A DNA stretch of 64,000 nucleotides from Calditrichia bacterium (lineage in GTDB: Bacteria; Calditrichota; Calditrichia; JAJRVZ01): the NCBI GenBank assembly GCA_963777955.1, contig CAVZSQ010000003.1, positions 184,753 through 248,752 on the forward strand. Direction: 5' to 3'. Under the pieces are notes generated by a model. The model had not been told where the DNA came from and searched no databases. It saw only the letters and a list, made by a program, of their open reading frames with translations. Positions 12,501 through 59,479 of the stretch are shown here, one piece after another (the stretch's first letter is position 1; every line of letters starts with the position of its first letter). The translations under genes and the position numbers were made by a program.

Positions 12501-12545
12501 CCCTGTTTCCCCTCCCTTTTGGCACTTCTTCGTGCCAAAAGGGAG
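12501..12545. terminator. GC-rich hairpin cccctcccttttggcac-ttcttc-gtgccaaaagggagggg, a member of the CCCCTCCCTT/AAGGGAGGGG palindrome family
   Basis: A perfect 17-bp inverted repeat read directly. It lies between the cytoplasmic amylase and the T9SS amylase genes. Confidence 0.5.
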
Positions 12546-12579
12546 GGGATCAAGGGGAGGGTCAAAAAAAGGATAAAAT

Positions 12580-26682: not shown

Positions 26683-28456
26683 ATGACGCACTGAAGGGAG
26701 TCGCTCATTTTTCGTACGTTTGCTTATCTTAAGCCATATCTGTTGCGTTATAAGTATAAGTTGCTGTCCGGCATTCTTTTTACCGTCATCAGCAATGCCG
26801 TAAGCATTCTATACCCCAAGGTCGTTCAAAAGTCTATTGATTATCTCGCTCACGAAATAGAAGTCAGACAATTGTTGTTGTACAGCGGATTGATTGTACT
26901 GATTGCAGCGGTGCAGGGATTTTTTCGCTTTTTGATGCGGCAAACCATTATTGTCGGTTCGCGCTTGATCGAGAATGATTTTCGCAATGATCTGTTCGGG
27001 CACCTGCAGAAAATGTCGGCCACTTTTTTCCAGAGCATGCCCACCGGCGATGTCATGTCGCGAATGACCAATGATCTTAGTGCGGTACGCAGTGTTTTGG
27101 GGCCGGGGATTATGTATTCGGCCAATACGATCTTCACCCTGGTTTTTGTAGTGGCGATGATGCTTACGATCAATCCGCTGCTGACCCTGATCGGATTTTT
27201 ACCCATCCCTTTGATCGCTTACTCCGTCTATCGTTTTGGTATGCAAATTCATAAAAGATATAAAGAGATCCAGGCACAATATTCCAGGATCAGCACCAAG
27301 GCCCAGGAAAACCTTTCCGGAATCCGGGTGATTAAATCCTATGTGCAGGAAGCGCATGAAATTATCGAGTTCAACAAATTGAACAAGGAATATGTCGATA
27401 AGAATATGGCCTTTGTGCGGGTCTATGCCGCCTTCCACCCGATGTTGATGTTTATTATCAGCCTGGGCATCATCCTGGTGCTGCTGGTAGGGGGAATTCA
27501 GATTGTAGACTGAGACAATTTCATTGGGAGAATTCGTAGCCTTCACCCTGTATCTGGCCATGCTGGTCTGGCCGGCGATTGCCCTGGGCTGGGTGGTCGG
27601 CATCTTTCAACAGGGGGCTGCGTCCATGGAACGGATCAATGTTATTCTGGACACCCAGCCTGAGATCCATGATGATCCACAGGCCGTGCCGCTAACAACT
27701 GTTCAGGGCGATATTCAGATAAAAAATCTTACCTTCGGCTATAATGGCGGCAGCAGGCCGGTTTTAAAGAATATTAATATTGATCTGCCCGCCGGGAGTA
27801 TCCTGGCCATAGTGGGCCGGACCGGCAGCGGGAAAACGACGATCATGAATTTGCTGACCCGCACCTATGATCCGCCGGAAGGAACAGTATTCATTGACGG
27901 CCTGGACATCAAGAAGATTCCTTTGCACATATTGCGTCTGCATACCGGATACATTCCGCAGGAAACTTTTCTGTTCTCGGATACCATTAAAGCAAATATT
28001 ACTTTTGGCCTGCCTGCCGGCAGTGATGAAAAAGTTATGGCCGCGGCCCAGGCGGCCCAGATCCACGATACAATCATGGAATTCGCTGATAAATATGAGA
28101 CCCTGCTGGGCGAGCGGGGTATTAATTTATCCGGCGGACAAAAACAGCGGGTCTGTATCGCCCGGGCCATCATTAAGGAACCGAAAATCCTGCTGCTGGA
28201 CGATGCGCTGTCAGCGGTCGATACTATAACCGAGGAAAAAATCCTGGAAGGTTTGCGTACGGTAATGCAGAACAGGACCTGTATCTGGATTTCGCATCGG
28301 ATCTCCGCTATTCAGAATGTCGACCAGATCATCGTACTGGATGAAGGGGGGATTGCCGAGCAGGGGACGCACCAGGAACTGCTGGCCCTGGAAGGGCTTT
28401 ATGCCGACCTTTATGAAAAACAAAAACTGGAAGAAGCACTGGATCAGGTTGAATAA
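26683..28456 (+). pseudogene. MsbA-like ABC exporter (TMD-NBD fusion) with an in-frame TGA near the N-terminus (26692) and a 1-nt indel near 27511 separating the TMD from TM6/NBD
   Basis: Frame 1: ATG(26683) ACG CAC TGA then RESLIFRTFAYLKPYLL.., an MsbA-like N-terminus. ORF 26743..27513 is the TMD; ORF 27524..28456 has GEFVAFTLYLAML (TM6), Walker A GRTGSGKTT, signature LSGGQKQRV and Walker B LLLDDALSAVD. Confidence 0.7.
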
Positions 28457-31763: not shown

Positions 31764-32587
31764 CGCCAGGCAGGGACAGAGAGACAAAGAAAGACACAAA
31801 GGCACAAAGGATGGGGGAATGAGATCTATGGGTGCAAAGAACGGTCTGGTAGCCGCATCCTTCAGGATGCGTTTGATAATACAAGGTATTATTGGTAGCC
31901 GCAACTCTTGAGTTGCGGTTTGATGCCGGAGGTATCAACTGTTTGTAGAACACGATGTGCTGAATAACCTACCCCTTTCATCCCCTCCCTGGTCCCCGAG
32001 CAAAGTCGAGGGGATAAGGGAGGGGAAAGAGGGGGGGGTTAGGGAGGGAAAAAGGGTGAAGGAAAAAGGCACAGATGCCTAAGTTTGTTATCCATGGTTT
32101 TAAAAGCCGCTGGATTCAAAATCCAGTGAGCGTGATCCGGCAGCTGCCGGAAGGGTTCAAGTCCCACCTTCGGCACAGTAGGGGCGCATTGCGATGCGCT
32201 CTTGTGTACCTGAGCCCCTGAGTACCCGAGTTCATTAAAATTCGCTTGGGGAACGCTGTACCGGTCGTCGAGCGAAGTCGAAACGTTCCCCTCTCGAGAG
32301 GGATGCCCCGACAAAGTCGGGGCGGGGTGTGTGGTGAAAAGGCGCAAAAGTAGGGGCAAGTCGCGACTTGCCCCTTCTTTTCGCCTGCCTGGCGGCAGAC
32401 AGGTTTTAACCTTTATCCTTCTTTTCAAGATTCCCGCCTGTACGATCATCAGGCAAGGCCTGCGCTGAGCGGGAATGACTCCCGAAGCCTTTGCATGCTC
32501 AGGAACTCAGGACTCAGGTATTTTTCTTCATAGGCTATCAGGTTTTTTGTACCTTTGTACCTCTGTCCCTTTGTCTCTTTGTCCCTG
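31764..32587. repeat. ~0.8 kb non-coding element bounded by a ~36-bp imperfect inverted repeat ((G/A)ACAAAG-type). It contains GC-rich palindromes and a tRNA-Leu(CAA)-like 3' fragment (32110-32176).
   Basis: The left arm gggacagagagacaaagaaagacacaaaggcacaaagg pairs with the right arm cctttgtacctctgtccctttgtctctttgtccctg. Inside lie ctgga-ttcaaaa-tccag (anticodon arm, CAA), tccggcagctgccgga (variable arm) and gggttcaagtccc (T-arm). No acceptor/D arm is present, and only junk ORFs. Confidence 0.5.
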
Positions 32588-34254: not shown

Positions 34255-37200
34255 ATGAATAGACCCATGGTTTGTATTGATGGGAATGAAGCAGTTGCTC
34301 AGGTTGCTCATAAAATCAATGAAGTTATAGCGATCTATCCCATCACCCCCTCGTCTAATATGGGTGAATGGGCTGATGCCTATTCAGCCGAAGGGAAGAA
34401 AAATATCTGGGGGACCATTCCGACCGTTGCTGAACTGCAAAGCGAAGGGGGCGCCTCCGGTGCTGTACACGGTGCTTTGCAGACCGGTGCTCTGGCTACT
34501 ACATTTACGGCATCACAGGGATTATTGCTGATGATCCCCAATATGTTCAAAATTGCCGGCGAACTGACCCCGACCGTTTTTCATGTTTCAGCCCGCACAG
34601 TAGCGGCTCATGCTCTGTCGATATTCGGTGATCACGGTGACGTCATGGCCGTACGCGCAACCGGTTTTGGTCTGCTAGCCTCCAACTCGGTACAGGAAGC
34701 TATGGATTTCGCCCTGATTTCCAGTGCAGCAACTCTTAAAGCCCGGGTGCCCTTCGTACATTTCTTTGACGGATTCCGGACTTCACATGAAGTACAAAAA
34801 ATAGAACAACTGACCGAAGATGATATGCGGGCCATGATCGATGATCAACTGGTTTTCGAACACCGCCGCCGGGCCTTGTCTCCTGATTTTCCGATCATGC
34901 GCGGTACGGCCCAGAATCCGGATGTTTTCTTTCAGGGCCGTGAAACGGTTAATCCATATTACCTGGCCTGTCCGGATGAAGTTCAAAAAGTGATGGATAA
35001 GTTTGCCAAACTGGTGGGACGGCAATATTCCCTGTTCGAATACCATGGTGCCAAAGATGCCGAACGGATAATTGTCCTGATGGGTTCCGGCGCTGAAACC
35101 GTGCATGAAACGGTAGATTATCTGAATGCCAAAGGAGAAAAAGTAGGGGTGCTTAAGGTCCGTCTGTTCAGACCCTTCTCGGTGAAACATTTTATCCAGG
35201 CCCTGCCCAGGACCGTCAAATCGATTGCGGTACTGGACCGGACCAAGGAACCCGGAGCGGCCGGCGAACCCCTGTACCAGGATGTGATTACTGCTTTGGT
35301 CGAAGGTCTATCGGCAGCCAACGCCCGGTTACCCAGGGTGATTGGCGGGCGCTACGGTCTCTCATCCAAGGAATTCACTCCGCCCATGGTTAAAGCCGTT
35401 TATGATGAATTGCTTAAAGATAAACCTAAAAATCACTTTACCGTCGGTATTATCGATGATGTTACCCATAGCAGTCTGGATTATGATCCGGCTTTCAGTT
35501 CCGCAGGTAGCAAGGTTAATCAGCTCAATGTTCTATGGACTGGGTGCGGATGGTACGGTTGGAGCCAATAAAAACTCCATCAAGATCATCGGCATGGAAA
35601 CGGACAACTATGCCCAGGGTTATTTTGTGTACGATTCGAAAAAATCGGGATCGATGACCATTTCACATCTGCGCTTTGGACCGGATAAGATCCATTCCAC
35701 TTACCTGGTCAACAAAGCGAATTTTATCGGCTGCCACCAGTTTGTGTTCCTGGAAAAATATGATGTGCTCGCTTCGGCAATCGAAGGTGCCGTTTTTCTT
35801 TTAAACAGTCCTTACGCCCTGGATGAAACCTGGGAGAATATTCCCAAAAAGGTACAGCAGCAGATTATCGATAAAAAAATCAAGATGTATGTTATCGATG
35901 CATATAAAGTCGCCAATGAAACAGGAATGGGTGCCCGGGTTAATACGATTATGCAGACCTGTTTCTTTGCCATTTCCGGTGTGCTGCCGCGGGAAGAGGC
36001 CATTGCCAAAATTAAAGAATCGATTAAAAAGACCTATGGCGCCAAGGGCGACGAAATAGTTAAAAAGAATTTTGAAGCAGTAGATAAGACACTGGCCAAT
36101 TTGCATGAATTCAAAGTACCGGCCAAGGCTGACAGTAAGGTTGAAGTACCGCCGGTGGTTCCTGATGCTGCACCGGAATTTGTTAAGAACGTCACGGCTA
36201 AAATTATCGCCGGACTTGGAGATGCATTACCGGTAAGCGCCTTCCCGGTTGACGGTACCTATCCTACAGCCACCACTCAATGGGAAAAACGGAATATCTC
36301 CCTGGAAATTCCGGTCTGGGATGAAAAGATCTGTATCCAATGCAATAAATGCGCGCTGGTCTGCCCCCATGCCGTTATCCGTCCTAAAGTTTATGATAAA
36401 GGGTTGCTCAAAAACGCACCGACCACTTTTAAACAGGCTAAGGCCCGGGGTAAAGAATTTGGCGAGGATCAGGTTTATACACTGCAGGTGGCACCGGAGG
36501 ATTGTACCGGTTGCGAGCTTTGCGTGGAAGTATGTCCGGTAAAGAATAAAGAGCAGGTAAAGCTGAAAGCGATTAATATGGCGCCGCAGCCGCCGCTGCG
36601 CGAAAGCGAACGCGAAAACTGGAACTTCTTCCTGACCCTGCCCGAGTTAGACCGCCGTACCGTCCAGGTCAACACGGTCAAAGGTTCGCAGATCCTGCAG
36701 CCCCTGTTCGAATTCTCGGGTGCCTGCTCCGGTTGCGGTGAAACACCGTATGTAAAACTGGTCAGTCAATTATTCGGCGACCGCGCGGTCGTGGCCAATG
36801 CCACCGGTTGTTCTTCGATCTACGGCGGCAATCTGCCGACTACCCCCTGGGCGCAGAATGCGGCAGGACGAGGTCCGGCCTGGTCGAATTCCCTGTTTGA
36901 AGACAATGCGGAATTCGGTTTTGGTTTCCGCCTGACCCTGGATAAGCAGAATGAATTTGCCCTGGAATTATTGAAGAAACTGGGCAGCGAACTGGGAGAT
37001 AAACTGGTCACTGCTCTGGCCGCTGCTGATCAATCCAGCGAGACGGGCATAATTGAACAGCGCGAACGGGTTGAAGAATTAAAGAAAAAATTAACTAAGA
37101 TAAAAAGTGCCGAAGCCCAACAATTATTGACCCTGGCCGATAAACTGGTAAAGAAGAGTGTCTGGATCATGGGTGGAGACGGCTGGGCCTACGATATCGG

Positions 37201-37816
37201 TTATGGTGGTCTGGATCATGTGCTGGCCTCCGGCAAGAATGTCAACGTACTGGTGCTCGATACGGAAGTTTACTCCAATACCGGCGGACAGATGTCCAAG
37301 GCTACCCCCCGCGGTGCGGTAGCTAAATTTGCAGCGGGAGGTAAACCAGTCAGACGGAAAGATCTGGGTCTGCTGGCCATGACTTACGGTAGTGTCTATG
37401 TGGCCCAGGTGGCCATGGGTGCCAGCGATGTGCAAACCGTAAAATCTTTCATCGAAGCGGATGCATATAATGGACCATCCATAATCATAGCCTACAGTCA
37501 TTGTATCGCTCATGGTATAAACATGCGCCTGGGACTTGAGCAGCAGAAACTGGCGGTTGACTGCGGATACTGGCCATTATACCGCTATAATCCCGATCTG
37601 GCCAGGAAAGGCGAAAATCCGTTCAATCTTGATTCCAAGGAACCGAAAATCCCGCTGCGGGCCTATGCCTATAATGAAACCCGGTACAAAATGCTGACCA
37701 AATCGGATCCGGAGGGAGCGCAAAGATTGATCGAACTGGCGCAACTGGATGTCAATGATAAATGGAATCACTATTCGCAGCTGGCCAAAATGACTCCTCT
37801 GACCAAAGCAGAGTAA
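34255..37816 (+). pseudogene. nifJ: Pyruvate:ferredoxin (flavodoxin) oxidoreductase, single-polypeptide PFOR, split by a 1-nt insertion near 35518
   Basis: ORF 34255..35571 (..IYPITPSS.., domains I/III) and ORF 35342..37816 (..MFYGLGADGTVGANKNSIKIIG.., two 4Fe-4S CxxCxxCxxxCP motifs, TPP domain GDGWAYDIGYGGLDH). Dropping one A of gttaat joins ..SKVISSMFYGLGADG. Confidence 0.8.
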
Positions 37817-48668: not shown

Positions 48669-50762
48669 TTATCCATTCTCACCACATGAACGCGCCATCT
48701 GCAGTAAATAGAAACGCAATTGATTCTGTTGCTTCTCCGATAAAATATGTTCCTCGATACGCGCAATCCTTTCCACATCCTGCAGGGCGCGAATGATATC
48801 CAGCGGCAACTCGGTCATGGCTGTGGGCATCTGGGTTACATACTGTACTACGGAAATCAGGAACTGGCGCAAGCCATCATCCTTAACTCCGCGCAAAGAC
48901 TGTGACACCTGCGAACTCAAGCGCATGATTTTACCCGGTTCCACCGACAACGATGATTTATTCCAGCCCTGACCGGTTATTAAAGAATGAACAGCCAGCG
49001 CCAGTTGCACAAAACTCTCCACCTGCTGCTGGATCGGATCGGTCAGCAGCGTCCAGATATGCGTGCGCAGTTGTTTGACCTTCTCGGGTAAAATTAAAAC
49101 AGGTTCGATATTATCAGACCACGAAGCATCAATCCGGCCATGAATGTTTTGCAGCAGTTGATCCAGGCGGGTGTTAAAAATATCAGCCTGCAGCAGTACC
49201 GCGTACTGCGGATGAATGGCCGGCAGCAGATCAGGTTTGAACTGGTCATTTTCAAAGAAATCAGAGATATCGAGTCCCTGCCGTTTCAGCAATTCTTTCT
49301 GGAAGAAGGGGATGAACCGGTCCATGGCATCCAGGTCTTCGCGCATGGCCAGGAAGGAAGAATTGCCCGGCGGAAAACATTTTTCAATCCGCTTGGCATA
49401 GATCATCTCCCGATCCTGGTACATCCGCATGGTTTGCAGAATTTCATATACCGGTAACCGGGGTAAAATGCGATCGCTGATCAGGGTAATGGCTTCGCTG
49501 TAACTGGTCTGGGTGTTCAGAAATTCAGTCAGCGCCCGGAAAATACCGGTGGTAAGTTGATTCAGACCCAGTATCATGGTCTGGGCTTTGTAATGCCCGA
49601 TGGCCCTTAATAAACTGCCGTGCCTGGATAGCGGTAAGATCTGGGCAAAGCGGTCGATAAGTTTTTCGCTGCGCGTCCCCCCTTTAGCCGGATCGGGCCG
49701 GACGGTCGGGCGGTCGCGCAGCGGCGGAATGGCCCGCGATACGAAATAGGAGATGACATGAATTCCCACCACATCCTCATCGCGTCCGTAAATGATTTGC
49801 CGGAAATTCTGGGTCAGCAATTTCAGAAAATCGGTATAGATATTATCGACAGGTCCGCAGGTGATTCTTTCCAGTTCCTGTAAACCACGGGAGCGGAATT
49901 GCAAACGGGTAGCCTGTAAAGGTTCGCTGATTTGCTGCAACTGCCGCCGGTGGAAAGTCTGGGCCTGTTGCAGGTGATATAGAATCTGGGCCAGTTCGGC
50001 AGCCGGTATGAATTTCAATTGCTCAGCCAGGTTGCTCTGCACGGTCAGCAGATCCCGGTGCGCCATGATCCCGGTTAAAGGACTGCGGGCATACTGGGTA
50101 CTGTGCCGGGTGGAGGATTGTAGATTTTCCAGTAATCTTTTTTTGGCATATTTTTCCATCAGGAAAGTCGAATCCTGCTGCAAGGCGGAATAATACCCTC
50201 CCTGCCGCTGCATCGGTTCCCCGCACCCCAGTTTGATCCGGATAGAATCCACCAGACCATGCTCGGCACACCAACGGACCGCCTGATGTTTGGCCCGGCG
50301 GTAAGCATCAGCTCCGGCCGGTTGACTGATTTGCTGGCTAAGATCCGAACCGGCAATAAACAATTCACAGATCATCTCGGAAAAACGATCAGCCACCTGT
50401 TGATCCAGCCGGCGGCTTTTAATGGAATAATCCCATAATTTATCGAGATAGTTATCCAGGTGATTGACCGTATCCAGTTCTTCAAACAAGGGGATCAACC
50501 AGAGTGACGGAGTGTCCAGATCCGGATTGTTGCGCAGGGAATATTCACGTTTGGCCCGCATCTTGCGGTCCAGGGCAATCAGGGCATCCGGATCACTGGA
50601 CATACTGACCTGCATGGCCAGGACCAGAGCCGGATTACCGTATTTACCCGAAATTTCATTTATTTCAATCATATTGTGAACGGTGGTATCGATGGCGAAT
50701 TGATCACTGGAGGTGATCATATTCTGATGAATACGCGGAGTGAGTACAAATCGTCGCAGCAA
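48669..50762 (-). CDS. Large hypothetical protein (697 aa); last gene of the flotillin-led operon
   Basis: Long ORF with no recognisable catalytic motif. It follows the 814-aa gene with a ~30-nt gap. Confidence 0.5.
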   Translation of the reverse strand: MLRRFVLTPRIHQNMITSSDQFAIDTTVHNMIEINEISGKYGNPALVLAMQVSMSSDPDALIALDRKMRAKREYSLRNNPDLDTPSLWLIPLFEELDTVNHLDNYLDKLWDYSIKSRRLDQQVADRFSEMICELFIAGSDLSQQISQPAGADAYRRAKHQAVRWCAEHGLVDSIRIKLGCGEPMQRQGGYYSALQQDSTFLMEKYAKKRLLENLQSSTRHSTQYARSPLTGIMAHRDLLTVQSNLAEQLKFIPAAELAQILYHLQQAQTFHRRQLQQISEPLQATRLQFRSRGLQELERITCGPVDNIYTDFLKLLTQNFRQIIYGRDEDVVGIHVISYFVSRAIPPLRDRPTVRPDPAKGGTRSEKLIDRFAQILPLSRHGSLLRAIGHYKAQTMILGLNQLTTGIFRALTEFLNTQTSYSEAITLISDRILPRLPVYEILQTMRMYQDREMIYAKRIEKCFPPGNSSFLAMREDLDAMDRFIPFFQKELLKRQGLDISDFFENDQFKPDLLPAIHPQYAVLLQADIFNTRLDQLLQNIHGRIDASWSDNIEPVLILPEKVKQLRTHIWTLLTDPIQQQVESFVQLALAVHSLITGQGWNKSSLSVEPGKIMRLSSQVSQSLRGVKDDGLRQFLISVVQYVTQMPTAMTELPLDIIRALQDVERIARIEEHILSEKQQNQLRFYLLQMARSCGENG

Positions 50763-50793
50763 ACTGCGAAAAGAACCGGCCGCTACAGCCAGT

Positions 50794-53238
50794 TTAGGGA
50801 TGGTTTAAATTTTTCTGGATGAGCGGCAGTGATTCATATAAAGTCTTGCGCAGTTGCTTATTCAGGGCGAAATAGTATTCCAGTAATTCACGGCGCTGCT
50901 GACGTAACTGGACCATTCTTCGTTCCAGGCGATCATTATGCAACCAGAGTGATTTTACCGGATCGCGCGCCAGATGCAAAGCCATCGCCGTCCGGCGCAG
51001 GCGGCCGGTCTGCAGATTAAAAGGCAGGAAACTGCGAAAGCGTTGTTCCAATTGGTTGGTTAACAGAGTGATCTTATCCAGTAAATCGCGGAGTTTGCGG
51101 TTGCTGGCCGGTAATTGCTGTATCCTGGAATGCAGATCATCGGGAATATGCAAGGTCCGCTCGATAGTTGCCAGGATATTCAGAATGTGGGCCTGCTGAT
51201 TGACATTTTCCACCACCACGCCTGCCACCAGCCGGTGCCCCTGGCCCGAAGGCCGGGTACTGCCGTCCCAGTCACCCCAGAAGGAGAGCAGTAATTGTGT
51301 TGAGGAAGTACTGTTCCAGCGGGTATATTCCTCGGCCATAAGGTAGGTTTTGATATCGGCCACCAGTTCATCGGCTTCCTGCGAAGAACTGATAGCTACA
51401 CTCTGGCCCAGATATTCCTGTAGCAAATTAGTACCGAGGTTCTGTATAACCTCGCCGGCAAAATTCTTGGTTTGCAGAAATCCTTCGATCAACTGGTTGG
51501 CCGTCAGGTCCACCGGCAGACCGAACATCTGGGTGGGGTGTACGGTACGGTCGAACAGACGTTGCCGGAAATTCAGAGATCGCTGTCGCAGGTCTTCTTT
51601 GTAAAATTCTTTTTCCAGGATATCGATAATCTGTTTCCGGCGGTCGCTGTTTATAAGGGCTAACAGATCGGCAGTTGACTCCAGCCTGTCGGTAAAACGC
51701 TGCTGTAATTGAGCCAGCCGTTCAGGCAGATATTGTTCCAGGAATAGTTTACGGATGGACTGACCATCGATGCCTGTGGCACCTTTTTCAGTCTGCTTAC
51801 CGATCAAAAACCGGCCACGCTGGATTACTTGTTTGCCGGCTTTTTGCCATTTCTCCAGGGCATCGGGAAAGAACTGATTATAGTTATGTTTTTTAGATAT
51901 AACCCGGATTTTGCTACGGTTGTAGGCAGAGGTTTCTTCGGCAATCATACCGTTAAGATCGATCAGCATACGCCGCATCTTGTGCAATAAAATATCGGCA
52001 TTATCCCGGCCGCCCAGGGTCAGGCGGAAAGTTTTGCGGGCAACTTCATAGCCGCTGGCCGTGCGGGCGAACGTGGTCAGCGGAATCAGGCCGATACCGC
52101 GGGTGGCTAAACCGGAAGCCAGCCAGGAAAGGGAAAGACCGGATGGCAGGTGATTTATGACCAGATGCGGATACATACTACCCTGCGGGCGTTTGACTGA
52201 AATAGAAAAAGAATTTCTTTCCGCGGGGAAATCGGCAACCGCCCGTTCTAACGCAGCCATCCTTTCGGCAAAGATCTGGTTGCGCAACAGCCAGAATGAG
52301 CGGACTTTTTCCGGAGAATTGCGATAAAACAGATAGGCTAACAAAACGGCCATGATATTCGGTTTAAACAGGGACATATAGGATGTAAACCGGGCCAGCA
52401 ATTGCGGGTGCAGAATTTCCACCACCGCCAGGCGTGCCCCGGCAAAACAGTCGGTTTTGGATAACGAATGGACGGTGACCAGATATTGCAGATGATCGGA
52501 ACGGATCCGGCCTTGCTGCACCATGGCAGTGGCCAGTTGACGCAAGGTTTTAGGACCGGTCAATTCATTTGCCGGGGCAACCAGTTGATAGGAGAGATCA
52601 TCGATGACATGAATTTTTCTGGGCAGCAGAAACTGCAGCAAGGCTGTTACTTTATTTTCCGCGAAAATTTTTCCGGTGGCGTTATGCGGATTATTCAAAA
52701 TAAAAGCAGCCGATTCAGACCAGTGCGGATCGGCAGCGGACTTCCGTTCTACGGTATTAATAATGGCTGGAACATCCAGTTCAAATTCCGCCGTCAATGG
52801 TACAACTTCGACCCGGGGAAAACAATGTTCATAAGTCCAACTCAGATCTGTGGAAATAACCTCGGCCAGGCCGCAGTGGAAACCCAGGACGCTCAGCGCA
52901 GTGCGTGCCGAACCGGGTATTACCCTGCAGTTCTCAGTGGCATAATAAGGATGATGACTGGAAAATGCGCCCAGGAAACTGGCGATTAAATTCTGCTGGA
53001 AGTCGGGATTAATTCCCTGTTCGGAAAATAACAGGACAACTTCTTCATTTGACAGGCTGGAAAAATAATCTACTGCTGATCCACTTTGCGGCAGGTGGGG
53101 TATAAATCTTGAATTCCACTCTTTGCTGATCCGGTAACTGCGCGTTAATTTTTGAGACCAGGTTGTATTTTTAGTCTCAAGCCGCTCATGTACTCTCTTT
53201 ACGGCAAGATTAAAATGATCCAGCACCAGGCCGGGCAT
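50794..53238 (-). CDS. Fusion protein: class-I/II PLP-aminotransferase-fold domain (about 1-400) plus a ~430 aa C-terminal domain of unknown function
   Basis: NNPHNATGKIF (NPxNPTG-type), VHSLSKTDCFAGARLAVV (S-x-SK..G.R PLP-lysine motif). The C-terminal half has no match I can recognise. Confidence 0.55.
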   Translation of the reverse strand: MPGLVLDHFNLAVKRVHERLETKNTTWSQKLTRSYRISKEWNSRFIPHLPQSGSAVDYFSSLSNEEVVLLFSEQGINPDFQQNLIASFLGAFSSHHPYYATENCRVIPGSARTALSVLGFHCGLAEVISTDLSWTYEHCFPRVEVVPLTAEFELDVPAIINTVERKSAADPHWSESAAFILNNPHNATGKIFAENKVTALLQFLLPRKIHVIDDLSYQLVAPANELTGPKTLRQLATAMVQQGRIRSDHLQYLVTVHSLSKTDCFAGARLAVVEILHPQLLARFTSYMSLFKPNIMAVLLAYLFYRNSPEKVRSFWLLRNQIFAERMAALERAVADFPAERNSFSISVKRPQGSMYPHLVINHLPSGLSLSWLASGLATRGIGLIPLTTFARTASGYEVARKTFRLTLGGRDNADILLHKMRRMLIDLNGMIAEETSAYNRSKIRVISKKHNYNQFFPDALEKWQKAGKQVIQRGRFLIGKQTEKGATGIDGQSIRKLFLEQYLPERLAQLQQRFTDRLESTADLLALINSDRRKQIIDILEKEFYKEDLRQRSLNFRQRLFDRTVHPTQMFGLPVDLTANQLIEGFLQTKNFAGEVIQNLGTNLLQEYLGQSVAISSSQEADELVADIKTYLMAEEYTRWNSTSSTQLLLSFWGDWDGSTRPSGQGHRLVAGVVVENVNQQAHILNILATIERTLHIPDDLHSRIQQLPASNRKLRDLLDKITLLTNQLEQRFRSFLPFNLQTGRLRRTAMALHLARDPVKSLWLHNDRLERRMVQLRQQRRELLEYYFALNKQLRKTLYESLPLIQKNLNHP

Positions 53239-54227
53239 TGGCAGAGGGGTAGCGGAGTAACTTGCGGTCTGACTGTTTCTGTCCCTGCAGGTTTAACCGC
53301 AATTAATTTTGGCTCGCCGGTCAATATAAAATTCAGGTGATCCATCTCAGCAGCAGCCGGGGTACCCTTTAATTCGAACTGAACAGTTTCAATAATCCGC
53401 AGATATGCGGCATTACCGAGAAGAAAACCTGTAGTAAGCGAATCAAGTTGTTCGGCGAAAACGGCCGGAAAAATAATCCGGATCACCCGGTTGAGCATTT
53501 GAACTTCGCGGGCCAGGGAGAGATGGTTGGGCGCATTGTTCCCTTCGATGAAGAACAGGGGATGGGTTAAACCCAACTGACGCAATTGCCGGCGGGTAGT
53601 CTCGGAAAAAACAGATCCTATGACAAAAAATACCGGACATTCGGGATTTTCGGTCAGATAGTTTTTGCTCTGTTGTATGATGGCCTGCTCGGTGCCGTTT
53701 AACTGCCGGATGGTTAAACCGGGAAAATTTGCTAAATGCTGCGGCAAAGATATTCCCTGAATCAGGATATGAGCCGGTTTGGTCATGAGGTAACGCGATA
53801 AGGAATGGAAAATTATACGCAGAGTTTCATGAATACCGCCGTTGACAATAATGCATTCGCGTTGTCCGGATTCCTCGCCAAAATCATAACTTAGCGGTTC
53901 ATCCTGACCGGATAATAACCACTGCTTCACATAATTGATCAGGGGGATCGGGCGCTGGCGGGAAAAACCTCCCCGTGGCGAGTAGTTGATACTGTTATTG
54001 ATAGCCTGGTAAACTAATTGCCGGCAGGTGCCGGGTTGACCGGCATCTTCAGGGTTGTCTTCCGGTAAGACCAGCTGGCTGTATAATGCTATTAGGCGAT
54101 CATCCTGAACCGGATTACCGATATGAAAATTAACCCGTTCCTGTTCCGGGACAGTTGAAGCTGCGGTCGCTTCGCTGATTTCCGAAATAGTAGCGGCCTG
54201 CAAGGGCCGTAACTGAAAATACTTCAT
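53199..54227 (-). CDS. Degenerate aminotransferase-like protein (N-terminal AT-fold features, no PLP-lysine motif)
   Basis: FHIGNP...INYSPRGG resembles the AT N-terminal G.P / Y.P..G motifs. No S-x-SK motif is present. It overlaps the 814-aa gene by 40 nt. The start is chosen at MKYFQL (54227) just downstream of the flotillin stop. Confidence 0.4.
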   Translation of the reverse strand: MKYFQLRPLQAATISEISEATAASTVPEQERVNFHIGNPVQDDRLIALYSQLVLPEDNPEDAGQPGTCRQLVYQAINNSINYSPRGGFSRQRPIPLINYVKQWLLSGQDEPLSYDFGEESGQRECIIVNGGIHETLRIIFHSLSRYLMTKPAHILIQGISLPQHLANFPGLTIRQLNGTEQAIIQQSKNYLTENPECPVFFVIGSVFSETTRRQLRQLGLTHPLFFIEGNNAPNHLSLAREVQMLNRVIRIIFPAVFAEQLDSLTTGFLLGNAAYLRIIETVQFELKGTPAAAEMDHLNFILTGEPKLIAVKPAGTETVRPQVTPLPLCQCPAWCWIILILP

Positions 54228-54249
54228 GGACTCGCTGCCGGCAGCAGAA

Positions 54250-55239
54250 CTATTTTCCACCAGTCGATTTTTTCTCCCCTGATTTAGCGACTCCCGGAAC
54301 AAGATTCTGCAGGAAAGACTGCAGCAGTCCCAGGATGTGCGATCCCTGATTTGCTTCCTGCGGGGACAGGGAAATGACCGTACGGGCGTTGCGCAGGGTT
54401 TGACTTGCTTCAGCAAGTCGGGTGAATTGTGGATTCAGCAGCAGTAACTCCGGATTCTGCTTGAATAATTCGAGTTCCTTTTTATCGGCGGCAAGTTGCA
54501 GTTCGCGTCGCTTCAATTCCTCTTGTACCCGCAGAGTGGCGATGGCCGCTTCTTTTTCTTCGGTTACTTTTTTCAGTTCATATCTTTTGAGTTCCAGGTT
54601 ATGTTCGGCCAGGGCAATTTTTTCATCGGCATCGATGCGCACGCGGGTTGCGGCAATACGGGCTTTTTGTTTTTCGCTTTCGGTTTGTTCCAGGATGCGG
54701 CTGGATTCCTGCTGATGCATGGCCTCGGCAATTTCCTCGTCCAGCGGATCGATAGATTGAATGCTCAGCGCAACCAGGTCCAGCCCGAGGTCATGGCTGG
54801 TTTTACTCAATTGTTCCTGTAAATGGCTGGCTAATTTTGCCGAGGACAATTCTTCCAGGGCATATAGTTCCGTATAGCCTTTGACTGCGGAATAGACCAC
54901 CACCTGCAGTTCTTTGGCGGCCTTGGCTACGGCATCTTCATTCCAGCCGCCTGCCCGGATTAACTGGGACAGGTGACCATCAGCCGGAGCCACGCTCAAA
55001 ATGACCACTACCTGCAGGCCGAGTTTTCCTTTGGCTTCAGCTTCCACTTTTACCGAAAGGGAATGCGTTGTACCCAGCAATGGCAGACTGAAATGGCGGG
55101 GGTATAAACGTCTGCGCCGCTGTTTGACATCTCCGGCTTTTTCATATAATATAATATGATCCGGTTTGCGCAGCCGGTATTCATAAAACAGGTAAGCGAT
55201 GATGACGATCAGTGCCGCGACAAGAGCATAAACCCACAT
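54250..55239 (-). CDS. Flotillin-like SPFH/band-7 protein with a coiled-coil tail
   Basis: N-terminal TM MWVYALVAALIVIIAYLF, an SPFH core, and a long EA/KE-rich coiled coil (..KKVTEEKEAAIATLRVQEELKRRELQLAADKKELE..). Confidence 0.65.
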   Translation of the reverse strand: MWVYALVAALIVIIAYLFYEYRLRKPDHIILYEKAGDVKQRRRRLYPRHFSLPLLGTTHSLSVKVEAEAKGKLGLQVVVILSVAPADGHLSQLIRAGGWNEDAVAKAAKELQVVVYSAVKGYTELYALEELSSAKLASHLQEQLSKTSHDLGLDLVALSIQSIDPLDEEIAEAMHQQESSRILEQTESEKQKARIAATRVRIDADEKIALAEHNLELKRYELKKVTEEKEAAIATLRVQEELKRRELQLAADKKELELFKQNPELLLLNPQFTRLAEASQTLRNARTVISLSPQEANQGSHILGLLQSFLQNLVPGVAKSGEKKSTGGK

Positions 55240-55478
55240 ATTTACTTCCCTCCTGAAAATGGGGTATTTTAATTTCTTCTGTTGTATTATCCCCGCCGGT
55301 CAGCAGATACTAACTGTCTTTAAGTACTGGTAGTTAGAGCAATATGCATCAATCAGGGGATCGGAAACACATTGTCGTGAAAATTAGTTACTGAAGGTAT
55401 AGAAATCAAGATGAGAATTATATATGGTTTTACTTGACTGCTTAGCCGGGTGTAAGTAAATTTCTACACTTTTTAAAC

Positions 55479-55596
55479 GGTCCGGTAGTTTCTCGACTAT
55501 TGTCGGGAGTTAGAGCACCTGTACGTCTACCTGGCGTTAGACAAACCGTCACGCAGGAAGTTGTCCGGCAGCTGCCGGAAGTCTCGCCCGTCCCGA
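55479..55596 (+). ncRNA. tRNA-Asp-derived RNA gene copy A, with its own TTGACT-17-TAAATT promoter, three hairpin insertions (D-loop, anticodon region, T-arm), and a 3' strand that cannot pair into an acceptor stem
   Basis: GGTCCGGTAGTT[tctcgactattgtcgggag]TTAGAGCACCTG[tacgtctacctggcgttagacaaacc]GTCACGCAGGAAGTTG[tccggcagctgccgga]AGTCTCGCCCGTCCCG aligned to the intact tRNA-Asp at 55885. Confidence 0.5.
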
Positions 55597-55700
55597 TGAG
55601 TGAACATTATGAACGAATCGGGATCCGTTCATCCCCCATTGTACTTTTGTTTTACTTGACTGAAAGATTTGGGCTGTTAATCTTACAACACTTTAAATAA

Positions 55701-55815
55701 GGACCGGTAGTTTCCCGACTGAGGTCGGGAGTTAGAGCACCTGTACGTCTACCTGGCGTTAGACAGGCCGTCACGCAGGAAGTTGTCCGGCAGTGCCGGA
55801 AGTATCGTCCGTAGC
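55701..55815 (+). ncRNA. tRNA-Asp-derived RNA gene copy B (paralogue of A), promoter TTGACT-16-TAATCT, same three insertions, with a compensatory change in the D-loop hairpin
   Basis: A has CUCGAC/GUCGGG (one U.G pair); B has CCCGAC/GUCGGG (all Watson-Crick). The anticodon-region hairpin GUCUA-CCUGGCGU-UAGAC is identical in both. Confidence 0.5.
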
Positions 55816-55884
55816 CCCCCTTTTGTCCTGTTGTTTTACTTGACTGAAAGATTTGACCTGCTTATATTTCATCACTTAAAAATT

Positions 55885-55959
55885 GGTCCGGTAGTTCAAT
55901 TTGGTTAGAGCACCTGCCTGTCACGCAGGAAGTTGCGAGTTCGAGTCTCGTCCGGACCG
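55885..55959 (+). tRNA. tRNA-Asp (anticodon GTC), with upstream promoter TTGACT-17-TATATT (55839-55867) and downstream terminator gccccccttgtgggggcttttt
   Basis: GGTCCGGTAGTTCAATTTGGTTAGAGCACCTGCCTGTCACGCAGGAAGTTGCGAGTTCGAGTCTCGTCCGGACCG forms a canonical cloverleaf with anticodon loop CUGUCAC. No CCA is encoded. Confidence 0.85.
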
Positions 55960-56002
55960 CTGGTAGCAGCCCCCCTTGTGGGGGCTTTTTAATTTAATAC
56001 AG

Positions 56003-56083
56003 CCACGCAGGAAGTTGTCCGGCAGACTCCGCCGGAAGTCTCGTCCGGACCGCGGGTAGAAGCCCCCCTTGTGGGGGCTTTTT
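56003..56083 (+). repeat. Partial tRNA-Asp copy (anticodon loop to 3' end, T-arm carrying a hairpin insertion) plus a copy of the tRNA terminator; att-site-like
   Basis: CACGCAGGAAGTTGtccggcagactccgccggaAGTCTCGTCCGGACCGcgggtagaagccccccttgtgggggcttttt. A further remnant gaagtcttgtccggaccacg lies at 56127-56146, followed by the hairpin ccattgttgttatataacaatgg. Confidence 0.6.
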
Positions 56084-56525
56084 AATTTCATGAATTCATA
56101 TAGACAGTAGGCCCCGATATATCGGCGAAGTCTTGTCCGGACCACGATGTACCATTGTTGTTATATAACAATGGGTTTATTATTTCATGCCAACTTTACA
56201 ATACCAAGGTAATGCTACCTCTATCATTATCAATGGTAAAATCAACTATGAACAGCATTCTTTTTACAGATTAATTTAGTAGATTGCTATTTGCATTTTA
56301 ATATTTATATTGAATAACAAGTATCAATAGTTATACAAATTGAGTCCCTTTTCGGTTTATTAATTTTCTTACAGATAGTAGAAGAAACAATTTAATTTAA
56401 CCAACGTTTAAAAAATTGTATTGATTTATTATGTTTATTGCGATTCAATAAAAGGCATGATTCTATTTGATATACGTTAAATCGCCACAAAGATGCTGTG
56501 GTTTACGAGGTAAAATGGAGGGATT

Positions 56526-58860
56526 ATGGGTGACTGCATGCAAAATATTACCAAAGAAATCTTTAAGAATTCATGCCTATTATTTCTTGCTATTGTATTC
56601 TTCCCTGAATTACTTTTCTGTCAAACAGAACGAGTTGATATTTCAATTTGGCAAGAAGAGAGTGGTAGCAAACAGCTTCTTCAAAAAGGTGTACCAGTTA
56701 TATTTCCATCACAGACTTTTCATTACAATCGCAACGAGAGAGAACAATATTTATGGACGAACTCTTCGCTTGATATACAATATCAAACCATGATATCAGA
56801 TACAGGGTCTTTTCAACCTGTTTCTGGTCCTTATGGTGGAACCGTCCGGAGTATCGCTCTCGATTCTGACGGTTGGCTTTTTATTGCCACAGATGGTGAG
56901 GTCTATAGATCGAAAGATAATGGATTACACTGGGATATGAATCTTTTCCCCTCACAGATACATAACTTTGTTGAACCTGTAACCATCCTTGGTCCAAATG
57001 TGGTGGTCGCTGAAACAGATTTCGGTAACTTCATCTCAAGGGACAGGGGTGAATCCTGGAATTATTTGCTCGATGATGTACAAGGGTTTGCAGTTGATAC
57101 AACTGGGGTGATATATGCAGGGTCAAATTATGATGGAATTATGAAATCAACTGACGCAGCAAAGTCCTGGACACAATATGCATTGGCGGGAAGAAAGATC
57201 TTCAAAGTGGTCCTGTGTGGCGAAGGAAAATTCGCTTGCTATTCCGATTCGGGTATTTTCGTATCTTCTGATAATGGAATAACATGGATACTCAGACCTA
57301 AGGAGACCGGAGACACTCGGTACTTGGTGAGTGATAAACGAGGAAACCTATTTATCCTGAAATTCTTGAATGAACGCTTACAACTTTATCGTAGCAGTGA
57401 TTTTGGAGAAATATGGCAGCACATAGTTTTGCCAACATCGGGGCATGCATATCGAGTTTACGTAGAAAACGATGGGAGTCTAATTGTACCTACTACTAGT
57501 ACCCGAAAATCGTAAAGACAAAATTCTAATGTCCACTGATGCTGGAGAAACATGGAGGGAGTTGCCATTTCCTGTTGGTGCGCCTCTAACCGTAGGCAGA
57601 GATGCTACGGGGAAATTACTGGCAGGATGTTTCAATGGCATTTACAAGTATAATGATACTGATAGTGATTGGAGCGAACTTAACAATGGTATTCATGCCC
57701 GGAGGATTGACGAGATTGAGTCTACCTCTACAGGATCAATTCTTGTACTTAGCTTGGGTACATGTTTCCGAAGCACAGATTATGGAAATTGTTGGACAAG
57801 TGTGTATATTGGTGGTCCGGCCGGTGGTACATATCCACACACTCCAATTCTTTGTACATCAGGTGGAAATATTTTTATTGCAGCCGTTTTTTATGACAAT
57901 TCTGAATGCGGTCTTTTCCGCTCTACAGACGATGGTTTATCCTGGGATCGGATTTCAGTCCCCTCAAATTACTATCAAATTTCTGGAATCACCGAAGGCC
58001 CTTCAGGAGACATTTTAATATCTACTTATTTCGGCGACATCTACCGTTCCACTGATAAAGGAGATTCATGGATCAGGGTTGTTTCGAGTGCAAGCCAATC
58101 AGAAATTACATGTATCGCTTCGGATAAAATAGGGAATTACTATGCGGCAAAGGATACGTCTATACTCTTCTCTCCTGATGGAATTGTTTGGGAAGTGTTT
58201 TCTATGAAACGTAACTATTACCCTCATGAATCAATGTGTATTGATACCCGTGGAGAGATTTTCCTTGGTTCGTTGTTCGATGGAGTTTATCATTCCTCTG
58301 ATCAAGCTAGAACCTGGAACCTGATGAATGACGGCCTCATTGATAAATATGTAATAAGCACAACGGCAGACGATAGTGGGAACGTTGTCCTGGGAACATC
58401 ATCTGGGATTTTCCGTCTTGCTGATTCCATTGAAAGTTGGTCGAGTTTTAGTAATGGTTTCCCGAATACTTTCACAAAAGCACTCTCCATTTCTCCACAG
58501 GGTTATTTGTATGCGGGGACTCAAAGCTTCGGAATATATAGGAGTGTTCGTCCAATTGGAAAACGTATTCAAAAGGTCAATCCTCCTCCTATACTGGATA
58601 TTACTGAATTCAGTCTTTACCAGAATTACCCTAATCCTTTCAATGATCAAACTGTTATCCGTTATGAGGTGCCTTCTAATGCAAGGGTTGAGATCAGGAT
58701 ATACAATATTCTGGGACAGGTGGTAACTACACTCATCTCGGACGATTTGCCTGAGGGCAGTTACGATATGGGATGGACTCCAAAACAACTTTCCAGTGGG
58801 CTTGTACTTCTGCGAGATGAAAGCTTCCTCAGGTTCAAGAACATATACGAAAGTAATTAA
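56526..58860 (+). pseudogene. BNR/Ycf48-like beta-propeller surface protein with a T9SS C-terminal sorting domain, split by a frameshift in an A4 run (~57507-57510)
   Basis: Recurrent S-x-D-x-G-x-T/S-W units (SKDNGLHW, SRDRGESW, STDAAKSW, SSDNGITW, STDAGETW, STDYGNCW, STDDGLSW, STDKGDSW). C-terminal FSLYQNYPNPFNDQTVIRYEVP. Removing one A gives ..PTTSTRNRKDKILMSTDAGETW. Confidence 0.7.
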
Positions 58861-58911
58861 ACTCATGTATCTACGATGAGATGGTAGGTCGCGGAAACGT
58901 AACGGTCTATC

Positions 58912-58975
58912 TATTTCCAGGTAAAAATGACCATCATCAGGGTTCTCTGAGACCCCCATCCGCCCCGCTGGTAGA
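58912..58975 (+). repeat. ~55-nt repeat R (tttccaggtaaaaatgaccatcatcagggttctctgagacccccatccgccccg) directly after the T9SS gene. A second copy sits after the beta-helix T9SS gene at 63945-64000.
   Basis: About 90% identical to 63945-64000: tttccaggcaaatgtaacgatcatcagggttctctgtgacccccatccgccccg. Confidence 0.75.
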
Positions 58976-59010
58976 AGCCTCCCTTGTGGAGGTTTTTTAA
59001 TTTAATAAGG

Positions 59011-59093
59011 TCACGCAGGAAGTTGTCCGGGCTCCGGAAGTCTCGTCCGGACCGCTGGATAGGGTTCGTGAAGAATTATTCACGACCTTTTTT
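59011..59093 (+). repeat. Partial tRNA-Asp copy (anticodon loop to 3' end, variant T-arm insert) plus hairpin terminator; att-site-like
   Basis: tCACGCAGGAAGTTGtccgggctccggaAGTCTCGTCCGGACCGctgg, preceded by gaagcctcccttgtggaggtttttt and followed by cgtgaagaattattcacg + tttttt. Confidence 0.6.
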
Positions 59094-59106
59094 GTTGTAG
59101 GATTTT

Positions 59107-59349
59107 ATGTGGCATGTATATATAATTTGCTCTAAAAAGATTGATCATTACTATATCGGAGTCACTGACAATCTCACCTGGCGTCTGGAGAGACATAACC
59201 AAGGCTGGGGCCGATACACGAAACGAGGTATTCCATGGAAAATTGTTTATACTGAATCATTCGCAAACAAGACTGATGCATTAAGTCGAGAAAGAGAACT
59301 CAAAAAACTCAAAAGTAGAAAACATATCGAGCAATTAATTAATAAATAG
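59107..59349 (+). CDS. Small GIY-YIG nuclease-family protein (UPF0213/YhbQ-like, 80 aa)
   Basis: MWHVYIICSKKIDHYYIGVTDNLTWRLERHNQG...RERELKKLKSRK carries the GIY-YIG core (YIGVT..L..RL..H) and a catalytic Glu-like position. Confidence 0.65.
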   Translation: MWHVYIICSKKIDHYYIGVTDNLTWRLERHNQGWGRYTKRGIPWKIVYTESFANKTDALSRERELKKLKSRKHIEQLINK

Positions 59350-59479
59350 TGTCTCGCAGGAAGTTGTCCCGATCGCAGGTCAGCCCCCTTTTTAGGGAGG
59401 CTTTTATTTTTATAAAGTTATGCCGGAAGTCTCGTCCGGACCGCATTAACCCATTGTTATAAATTACAGTGGGTTTTTT
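59350..59479 (+). repeat. Partial tRNA-Asp copy with a larger T-arm insert, plus hairpin terminator
   Basis: tCtCGCAGGAAGTTGtcccgatcgcaggtcagccccctttttagggaggcttttatttttataaagttatgccggaAGTCTCGTCCGGACCGcattaacccattgttataaattacagtgggtttttt. Confidence 0.55.

Follow-up and report, generated by a model that had tools for sequence, protein, structure and literature searches.

The question raised by this locus is what two tRNA-Asp look-alikes, here called copies A and B, are doing in tandem in front of a genuine tRNA-Asp gene. They were noticed in a window of 64,000 nucleotides, by which we mean the whole stretch of DNA that was analysed, and the initial annotation offered three possibilities for them, i.e., a new family of tRNA-derived structured sRNAs, decaying pseudo-tRNAs, or att sequences carried by an element. 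The gene content of the window, which includes T9SS sorting domains and a sigma-54 activator, is that of a bacterium of the FCB group, and the best named homologues of the SPFH gene that neighbours the locus are found in the Ignavibacteriales, at ~50% identity.

Organization of the tRNA-Asp Locus

Re-reading of the sequence confirmed both look-alikes, with A beginning at 55479 and B at 55701. The tandem order is A (55479-55623), B (55701-55816) and then the genuine tRNA-Asp(GTC) at 55885-55960, which is called by ARAGORN and obtains 65.6 bits with Rfam; each of these three units stands behind a block TTTTACTTGACT that provides the -35 region (55428, 55650, and 55834). The parts of the two copies are listed below, where R1 denotes the covariance model built from A, B and their homologue in a close relative (L002).

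55479..55623, + strand: copy A, pseudo-tRNA-Asp; 142.5 bits with model R1, no tRNA call
55479-55490, + strand: 5' acceptor/D-stem block of copy A
55491-55508 (A) and 55713-55730 (B), + strand: D palindrome, read from the sequence
55509-55521, + strand: block of copy A between the D palindrome and the anticodon-side insert
55522-55547 (A) and 55744-55769 (B), + strand: anticodon-side segment, probably a remnant of the central part of a GIY-YIG ORF
55548-55593, + strand: cassette-type 3' half of copy A, with the T palindrome (55564-55579) inside
55564-55579 (A) and 55786-55800 (B), + strand: T-position palindrome, read from the sequence
55591-55623, + strand: fourth palindrome, specific to copy A and missing from B
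55701..55816, + strand: copy B, pseudo-tRNA-Asp with a degenerate 3' end; 145.9 bits with model R1

As had been described, A and B both retain the tRNA-Asp blocks GG(T/A)CCGGTAGTT, GTTAGAGCACCTG and GTCACGCAGGAAGTTG, which they have in common with the genuine gene. The three extra segments that they share are also present, but the term insertion does not apply to them, since each one replaces tRNA residues. The D-position palindrome TC(T/C)CGAC-nnnn-GTCGGGA occupies the place of CAATTTG in the D-loop, the anticodon-side segment of 26 nt that of CCT on the 5' side of the anticodon loop, and the T-position palindrome TCCGGCAG(C)TGCCGGA that of CGAGTTCG, i.e., the 5' half of the T-arm and its loop. 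The composite pattern of A and B matched twice in the window and not at all in shuffled sequences, which excludes chance. It had further been stated that neither copy can form a canonical acceptor stem, and this is correct: the 3' strands are CCCGTCC in A and CCGTAGC in B, where CCGGACC is needed. Both copies also lack a GTTCGA-type T-loop and a normal D-loop, and as tRNAs they obtained neither an ARAGORN call nor an Rfam match at E-values up to 10.

Each copy had been credited with a promoter of its own. A consensus promoter scan bears this out for A (TTGACT-17-TAAATT), and it also called a full promoter for the genuine tRNA-Asp, but the region in front of B, with AATCTT as its -10 element, was not called. 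The promoter-bearing regions are as follows.

55428..55464, + strand: ancestral tRNA-Asp promoter PA, with -35 TTGACT (55434-55439) and -10 TAAATT (55457-55462); here it drives A
55650..55687, + strand: promoter-like region of B, with -35 TTGACT (55656-55661) and a weak -10 AATCTT (55679-55684)
55834..55960, + strand: promoter P (TTGACT-17-TATATT) and functional tRNA-Asp(GTC)

A promoter of the PA type directly drives tRNA-Asp in the relatives L005 and L025, and the promoter-like region of B corresponds to a second copy of the promoter region of the genuine tRNA (direct repeat D5, 78% identity). Terminator prediction at the locus revealed no intrinsic terminator directly after A or B. Transcription of copy A from the old promoter probably persists, either by itself or as the leader of a tRNA-Asp precursor, and we do not think that A has a separate function.

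The region 3' of the genuine gene is a mosaic of further tRNA-Asp pieces, foreign DNA and a small nuclease gene.

55961..56174, + strand: terminator, 3' half, second terminator, 3'-end fragment and terminator-like hairpin
56004-56053, + strand: cassette-type tRNA-Asp 3' half, with its palindrome at 56018-36
56127-56145, + strand: short tRNA 3'-end fragment
56175..58932, unstranded: low-GC (0.39) inserted segment with two ORFs for BNR/Sortilin-type secreted proteins, missing from L002
58933..59087, + strand: degenerate tRNA 3' end (X), terminator, 3' half, and the terminator ahead of the nuclease ORF
59010-59055, + strand: cassette-type 3' half before the nuclease ORF, with palindrome TCCGGGCTCCGGA
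59107..59349, + strand: GIY-YIG nuclease ORF, 80 aa, UPF0213/YhbQ type (PF01541, E 2.5e-16; PDB 1zg2, a UPF0213 protein, E 2e-7)
59353..59473, + strand: cassette-type 3' half right after the nuclease stop codon, interrupted by an insert of 53 nt (59370-59422)

After the 3' half that starts at 59353 come the native terminator and flank of tRNA-Asp, and this flank is homologous to the sequence directly 3' of tRNA-Asp in L002. In L002, the tRNA directly precedes the terminator and flank that in the window are found from 59447 onwards, and positions 55961-59446 of the window should therefore be considered as inserted material. The GC content is 0.39 in the inserted material versus 0.49, and direct repeats of the tRNA 3' segment (55944, 56037, 59039, and 59428) bound the foreign DNA.

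The Locus in Close Relatives

Syntenic loci of relatives were fetched through the neighbouring SPFH gene and ranked by the identity of the SPFH protein.

L002-L004: SPFH identity 96%, divergence at 4-fold sites 0.23; one A/B-type copy, then the tRNA
L005: SPFH identity 90%, divergence at 4-fold sites 0.43; zero copies, the old promoter directly before an ARAGORN-called tRNA-Asp
L025: SPFH identity 89%, divergence at 4-fold sites 0.37; zero copies, the old promoter directly before the 5' end of a normal tRNA-Asp (the contig breaks off ~30 nt into this gene)
L013: SPFH identity 88%, divergence at 4-fold sites 0.42; truncated copy with the D palindrome kept and the anticodon part absent

The distribution of A/B-type copies is patchy even among these close relatives, with two copies, one, a truncated one, or none at the different loci. 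In the truncated copy of L013 the palindrome TCCGGC-AGAA-GCCGGA substitutes for the anticodon loop, and the tRNA starts 30 nt after this copy without a promoter of its own. When the window is compared with L002, the tRNA is 100% identical, the body of A/B 88-91%, the old promoter 76% and the downstream flank 70%. The old promoter has decayed in L002, where both hexamers are mutated (CTGACT and CAAATA) and the promoter scan made no call.

Two parts of these loci deserve mention in their own right. The tRNA-Asp of L005 (3545-3620, minus strand) has CCGCCCC as its 3' acceptor strand, with two mismatches to GGTCCGG; an identical ending is found in X, the degenerate 3'-end element that accompanies GIY-YIG cassettes, and this tRNA-Asp may be partly converted and impaired. 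The intergenic stretch between the start of the SPFH gene and the tRNA promoter (55240-55428) is 96% identical to that of L002, versus a difference of 23% at 4-fold sites, and L005, L013, and L025 retain blocks of it. It gave no Rfam match from 55300 onwards and may represent a conserved regulatory or leader element.

RNA Structure and Covariation

Selection on RNA structure had been proposed on the basis of one base change in the D hairpin, U.G in A and C-G in B, that was described as covariation. The change is there, but it is one-sided and compatible with pairing, and not a double compensatory change. Among the three full-length sequences that are available for comparison (A, B, and L002), the D and anticodon-side hairpins exhibit one-sided C-G/U.G changes only, and 49-50 of 500 shuffles reach the observed covariation scores, so that the signal is not significant. 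What was read as covariation is therefore a compatible wobble change, which does not constitute evidence of selection. All of the proposed hairpins can pair in A, B and the L002 homologue, and for the anticodon-side segment two alternative pairings fit about equally well. Two-sided stem changes are confined to the T palindrome, and these result from a wholesale swap to the palindrome that occurs at other loci of the L002 genome.

Folding and homology searches did not reveal an RNA family either. Single-sequence folds are not more stable than those of shuffled sequence (z -0.8 to -1.9), and model R1 retrieved no further full-length copy from 219 kb of collected sequence. Searches of genome and metagenome contig collections with patterns that allowed any D-loop and any anticodon-side insert also yielded no further copies of A or B; the last genome scan gave chance matches plus one locus, L017, that is discussed below, and the scans of viral sequences gave one match, a chance one in coding sequence. 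Rfam produced no match for A, for B, or for the region at 31.6-32.7 kb. The D palindrome has a variable loop, and its 7-bp stem is identical between hosts that are 42% diverged at 4-fold sites.

A GIY-YIG Cassette with a tRNA-Like 3' Half

The 3' part of A and B consists of GTCACGCAGGAAGTTG, a palindrome and AGTCTCG, and the same module is found directly 3' of the stop codon of the GIY-YIG ORF. In the window and at L020, L024, and L026, 0-3 nt separate this stop codon from (GT)CACGCAGGAAGTTG, after which come a palindrome and AGTCTCGTCCGG; the junction thus occurs in the window and in three other genomes, and at L020 and L024 there is no tRNA nearby. The window contains five occurrences of CACGCAGGAAGTTG and one copy with a single mismatch. 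At all sites in the collected sequences, CACGCAGGAAGTTG continues into a palindrome and then AGTCTCG in every non-genuine copy, and into CGAGTTCGAGTCTCG in the genuine tRNAs. The GTTCGA motif of the T-loop is kept only in genuine tRNAs and is absent from all of the non-genuine tRNA-Asp-like copies (15 out of 15, from six genomes); likewise, all 10 of the 3'-half repeats counted have their T-arm replaced. A pseudogenised GIY-YIG ORF in the L002 genome adjoins yet another 3' half.

The type of palindrome agrees within genomes and differs between them. TCCGGC-type palindromes occur in the window and in L013, TCCCCCGATTTATCGGGGG at three sites of the L002 genome (the pseudo-tRNA, the distal half, and the L020 cassette), and TCCCGCAA-type palindromes in L026. 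Within the window, the palindrome of copy A is the one that is also found in a tRNA-Leu-like half at 32136.

The ORF itself encodes a single catalytic domain of 80 aa in total, without a separate DNA-binding domain, and its closest relatives of solved structure are single-domain proteins of the UPF0213 type. Its homologues (n = 86) are mostly 80 aa long and mostly located on short contigs, and none was found to be plasmid-borne.

The anticodon-side segment of A and B may stem from the same source. It aligns to positions 59171-59200 of the GIY-YIG ORF, the region of the conserved TWRLERH, with p about 0.001 (as high a score was reached by 1 of 1000 shuffled queries and by none of ~1000 random targets of 243 nt), although the alignment requires three gaps and emerged from several comparisons. 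The segment can be aligned to the ORF of L024 as well (p about 0.005-0.01), and its orientation and its position just 5' of GTCACGCAGG are those of the ORF in intact cassettes. This is suggestive of an ORF relic at the anticodon side, in which case A and B would be composed of a tRNA-Asp 5' part, an ORF relic and the tRNA-like end of a cassette. For the D palindrome, comparison with the cassette revealed no significant similarity.

Three other candidate explanations for the hairpin-bearing copies were considered and rejected. A genome-wide REP-like family of TCC...GGA palindromes was ruled out because the palindromes are confined to tRNA-like contexts; a group I intron with a homing-endonuclease ORF did not fit, there being no Rfam ribozyme or intron match and ~100 nt of non-ORF sequence per unit; and archaeal-type tRNA introns were set aside by reasoning from the bacterial context (T9SS and sigma-54 genes).

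The tRNA-Leu(CAA)-like 3' half mentioned above (32106-32176) was not called by ARAGORN, and it has copy A's exact 16-nt palindrome, TCCGGCAGCTGCCGGA, between its anticodon arm and an intact T-loop. On its 5' side lie two terminator-like units of TGGTAG plus a hairpin (31845-31930), which resemble those after tRNA-Asp. The surrounding stretch (31955-32400) forms part of a 1-kb intergenic region between an isocitrate/isopropylmalate dehydrogenase gene and an ORF of unknown function; it contains repeated ccccga..aaagtcg..gggg motifs and a long G-rich hairpin (31964-32042) with weak, miRNA-like noise matches in Rfam.

The Same Association in Other Lineages

The combination of a palindrome-bearing pseudo-tRNA, a GIY-YIG gene or its relic and an intact tRNA recurs in two further lineages. 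In L026 (GCA_054008135.1, 5440-6330) two pseudo-tRNA-Asp copies, 92% identical, are arranged in tandem with a period of 102 nt. Their anticodon arm is replaced by TCCCGAC(G/A)CGTCGGGA and their T-loop is altered, so that the hairpin TCCCGAC/GTCGGGA is the same hairpin as in A and B but at the anticodon arm. These pseudo-copies are followed by an intact tRNA-Asp and then by a repeat unit of 415 nt that comprises a GIY-YIG ORF and a palindrome-bearing tRNA half; the first of the repeat units is reduced to the 3' end of the ORF.

L017, part of a Chitinophagales MAG (JBBSUB010000204.1, 4553-5246), surfaced by a chance pattern match. Here the pseudo-tRNA is a tRNA-Met, with its anticodon and T regions replaced by palindromes, among which the perfect palindrome TGCCGATAGCTATCGGCA stands in place of the 3' side of the anticodon loop. 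A GIY-YIG relic at 4664-4882 was detected with an HMM built from the 86 homologues (E 3.7e-5, the next-best match having E 1.4); Pfam gave no match for this 41-aa relic. Next comes a second version of the upstream gene start and promoter, diverged by ~20% as judged by eye, and this duplicate carries the intact tRNA-Met.

Origin of the tRNA-Asp Copies

The explanation that we favour, with moderate confidence, is that A and B are disabled copies of tRNA-Asp that were made and remodelled by a very small GIY-YIG cassette, which resides at tRNA genes and behaves as a SegB-like homing or amplifying element. The unit of this cassette comprises the 80-aa GIY-YIG ORF, its stop codon, the 3' half of tRNA-Asp from the anticodon loop onwards and a terminator, and in this 3' half a short GC-rich palindrome replaces the 5' strand of the T-stem and the T-loop. 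The 80-aa nuclease may cut tRNA genes at the T-loop motif, in the native gene at or near GTTCGAGT, upon which repair by homologous recombination would duplicate or convert neighbouring tRNA-Asp copies. Copies in which the T-loop motif has been replaced would be immune to cutting but non-functional as tRNAs, and such copies could persist and decay 5' of one intact gene. The specificity of cleavage and the immunity are inferred by analogy with SegB.

SegB, a free-standing GIY-YIG homing endonuclease of the T4/T6 tRNA cluster, is the closest known system. In phage T4 this enzyme is encoded among tRNA genes, its site is built around the T-psi-C stem-loop motif, and it homes together with the flanking tRNA region (PMC2330249). 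The SegB of T6 cuts inside tRNA genes at a T-loop-like motif and drives the recombination-dependent tandem amplification of segments with segB and tRNA (PMC13096335). Here, too, the nuclease gene adjoins tRNA genes, and exactly the motif that SegB recognises is missing from every non-genuine tRNA-Asp-like copy, including all those adjacent to the variably present cassette; the amplification of segB and tRNA segments is mirrored by tandem units of ORF and tRNA-like half and by tandem tRNA-like copies. Unlike SegB, the genes reported here are chromosomal and belong to Ignavibacteria-like and Chitinophagales bacteria rather than to a phage, and the cassette unit carries a palindrome-substituted tRNA half. 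The predicted nuclease possesses the GIY-YIG domain expected of a Seg-like enzyme (PF01541) but, at 80 aa and of the UPF0213 type, not the separate DNA-binding domain. It resembles the small GIY-YIG proteins of the UPF0213/YhbQ type (PDB 1zg2, 1ywl) over its whole 80 aa and belongs to the same size class. Genes of the YhbQ type are usually regarded as single-copy housekeeping genes of unknown role; unlike these, the gene described here is multi-copy, often located on short contigs, partly pseudogenised and tied to tRNA-like repeats.

Several observations are at odds with an origin from the cassette. The domain that Seg-type enzymes use to bind their targets is lacking from the 80-aa protein, the D palindrome has no significant similarity to the cassette, and the T-loop is intact in the tRNA-Leu-like half at 32106-32176. 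Moreover, the stem of the D palindrome has remained identical despite the divergence of 42% at 4-fold sites, which could reflect selection on the hairpin.

This last point leads to the alternative of a functional tRNA-derived RNA, in which A and B would act as a free sRNA or as a structured leader of the tRNA-Asp precursor and their hairpins would be under selection, e.g., as a decoy for a factor that binds or cuts tRNA. The intact promoter of A, a conserved ancestral tRNA promoter, would fit this, as would the D-hairpin stem, which is kept in four lineages with four different loops, and the two stem changes, which are both G.U-compatible on the sense strand. The body of A/B is 88-91% identical to that of L002 versus 77% at 4-fold sites, and pseudo-copies 5' of tRNA-Asp recur in L026. 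However, mobility of the module can explain the conservation of the stem, and gene conversion with the adjacent tRNA could keep the conserved blocks uniform. The T hairpin belongs to the cassette and was swapped as a module, one and the same hairpin is found at different tRNA positions in different lineages, and close relatives have from 0 to 2 copies, the truncated form of L013 being devoid of the anticodon part. With mutated promoter hexamers in L002, no significant covariation, ordinary folds and no Rfam match, we consider a functional RNA unlikely. Of the possibilities proposed at the outset, the pseudo-tRNAs and the element-borne, att-like sequences are in keeping with these data, e.g., with the cassette 3' end and the patchy distribution, and the sRNA family is not.

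The att sequences would take on a different meaning if A and B were classical remnants of tyrosine-integrase islands that repeatedly integrated in tRNA-Asp, with the GIY-YIG gene as mere cargo. Integrative elements leave fragments of tRNA genes as attL and attR (Islander, PMC4383910; PMC9897764). At the present locus, too, partial tRNA copies flank a compositionally different insert at a tRNA gene, and the low-GC inserted DNA lies between direct repeats of the tRNA 3' part. These repeats start in the anticodon loop, which is reportedly the classical crossover sublocation. Unlike att fragments, however, those described here are non-native, with the T-arm replaced: a displaced native fragment should keep its T-arm, and none of the 10 3'-half repeats and none of the 15 non-genuine copies does so. 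Pfam revealed no integrase or recombinase domain in the ORFs at 56-64 kb, nor was one found beside the tRNA-Leu-like half. In four genomes the module is joined to the nuclease ORF at its stop codon, and it also occurs away from tRNAs; the 5' halves with their promoters are duplicated as well, which classical integration does not bring about. It seems, therefore, still less likely than a functional RNA that integrase islands are the source.

A plain tandem duplication of promoter and tRNA-Asp, followed by neutral decay with chance hairpins, is very improbable: it would account for the tandem arrangement, the similar promoter blocks and the degenerate acceptor 3' strand and terminator, but not for the reappearance of these palindromes elsewhere, at other loci as well as in other genomes, for the perfect or near-perfect palindromes that have taken the place of three tRNA loops, or for the consistent association with the GIY-YIG gene.

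If we return to the cassette as the preferred source, a broader but tentative proposal, which we consider possible rather than probable, is that a subfamily of the UPF0213/YhbQ GIY-YIG proteins forms cassettes of ~350-420 bp that home into, or amplify at, chromosomal tRNA genes across the FCB group. Their palindrome-substituted tRNA halves would serve as cleavage-immune homology arms, which would give rise to arrays of hairpin-bearing pseudo-tRNAs. Targets observed are tRNA-Asp, tRNA-Met and possibly tRNA-Leu, and the pseudo-tRNAs might additionally act as decoys or repair templates. Should the cassette model prove correct, a subgroup of UPF0213, a widespread family of unknown function, would gain a concrete role, and the biology of SegB-type enzymes, i.e., the targeting of tRNA genes and the amplification of segments, would reach beyond phages into bacterial chromosomes. 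The model would also explain odd tRNA look-alikes that are missed or possibly mis-called by annotation tools, and it would call for caution in naming hairpin-rich tRNA derivatives new sRNAs on the basis of a single wobble change.

Other Features of the Window

Several genes of the window are split but occur as single ORFs in relatives (48669-54416, 34255-37816, and 26743-28456). A 1871-aa gene with an aminotransferase domain changes frame at about 53253 and 50797, and the PFOR and ABC transporter genes each consist of two overlapping or adjacent ORFs; these splits represent either indel sequencing errors or pseudogenes. At 12508-12549 the window also contains a perfect 18-bp inverted repeat (TCCCCTCCCTTTTGGCAC...GTGCCAAAAGGGAGGGGA) with a loop of 6 nt.
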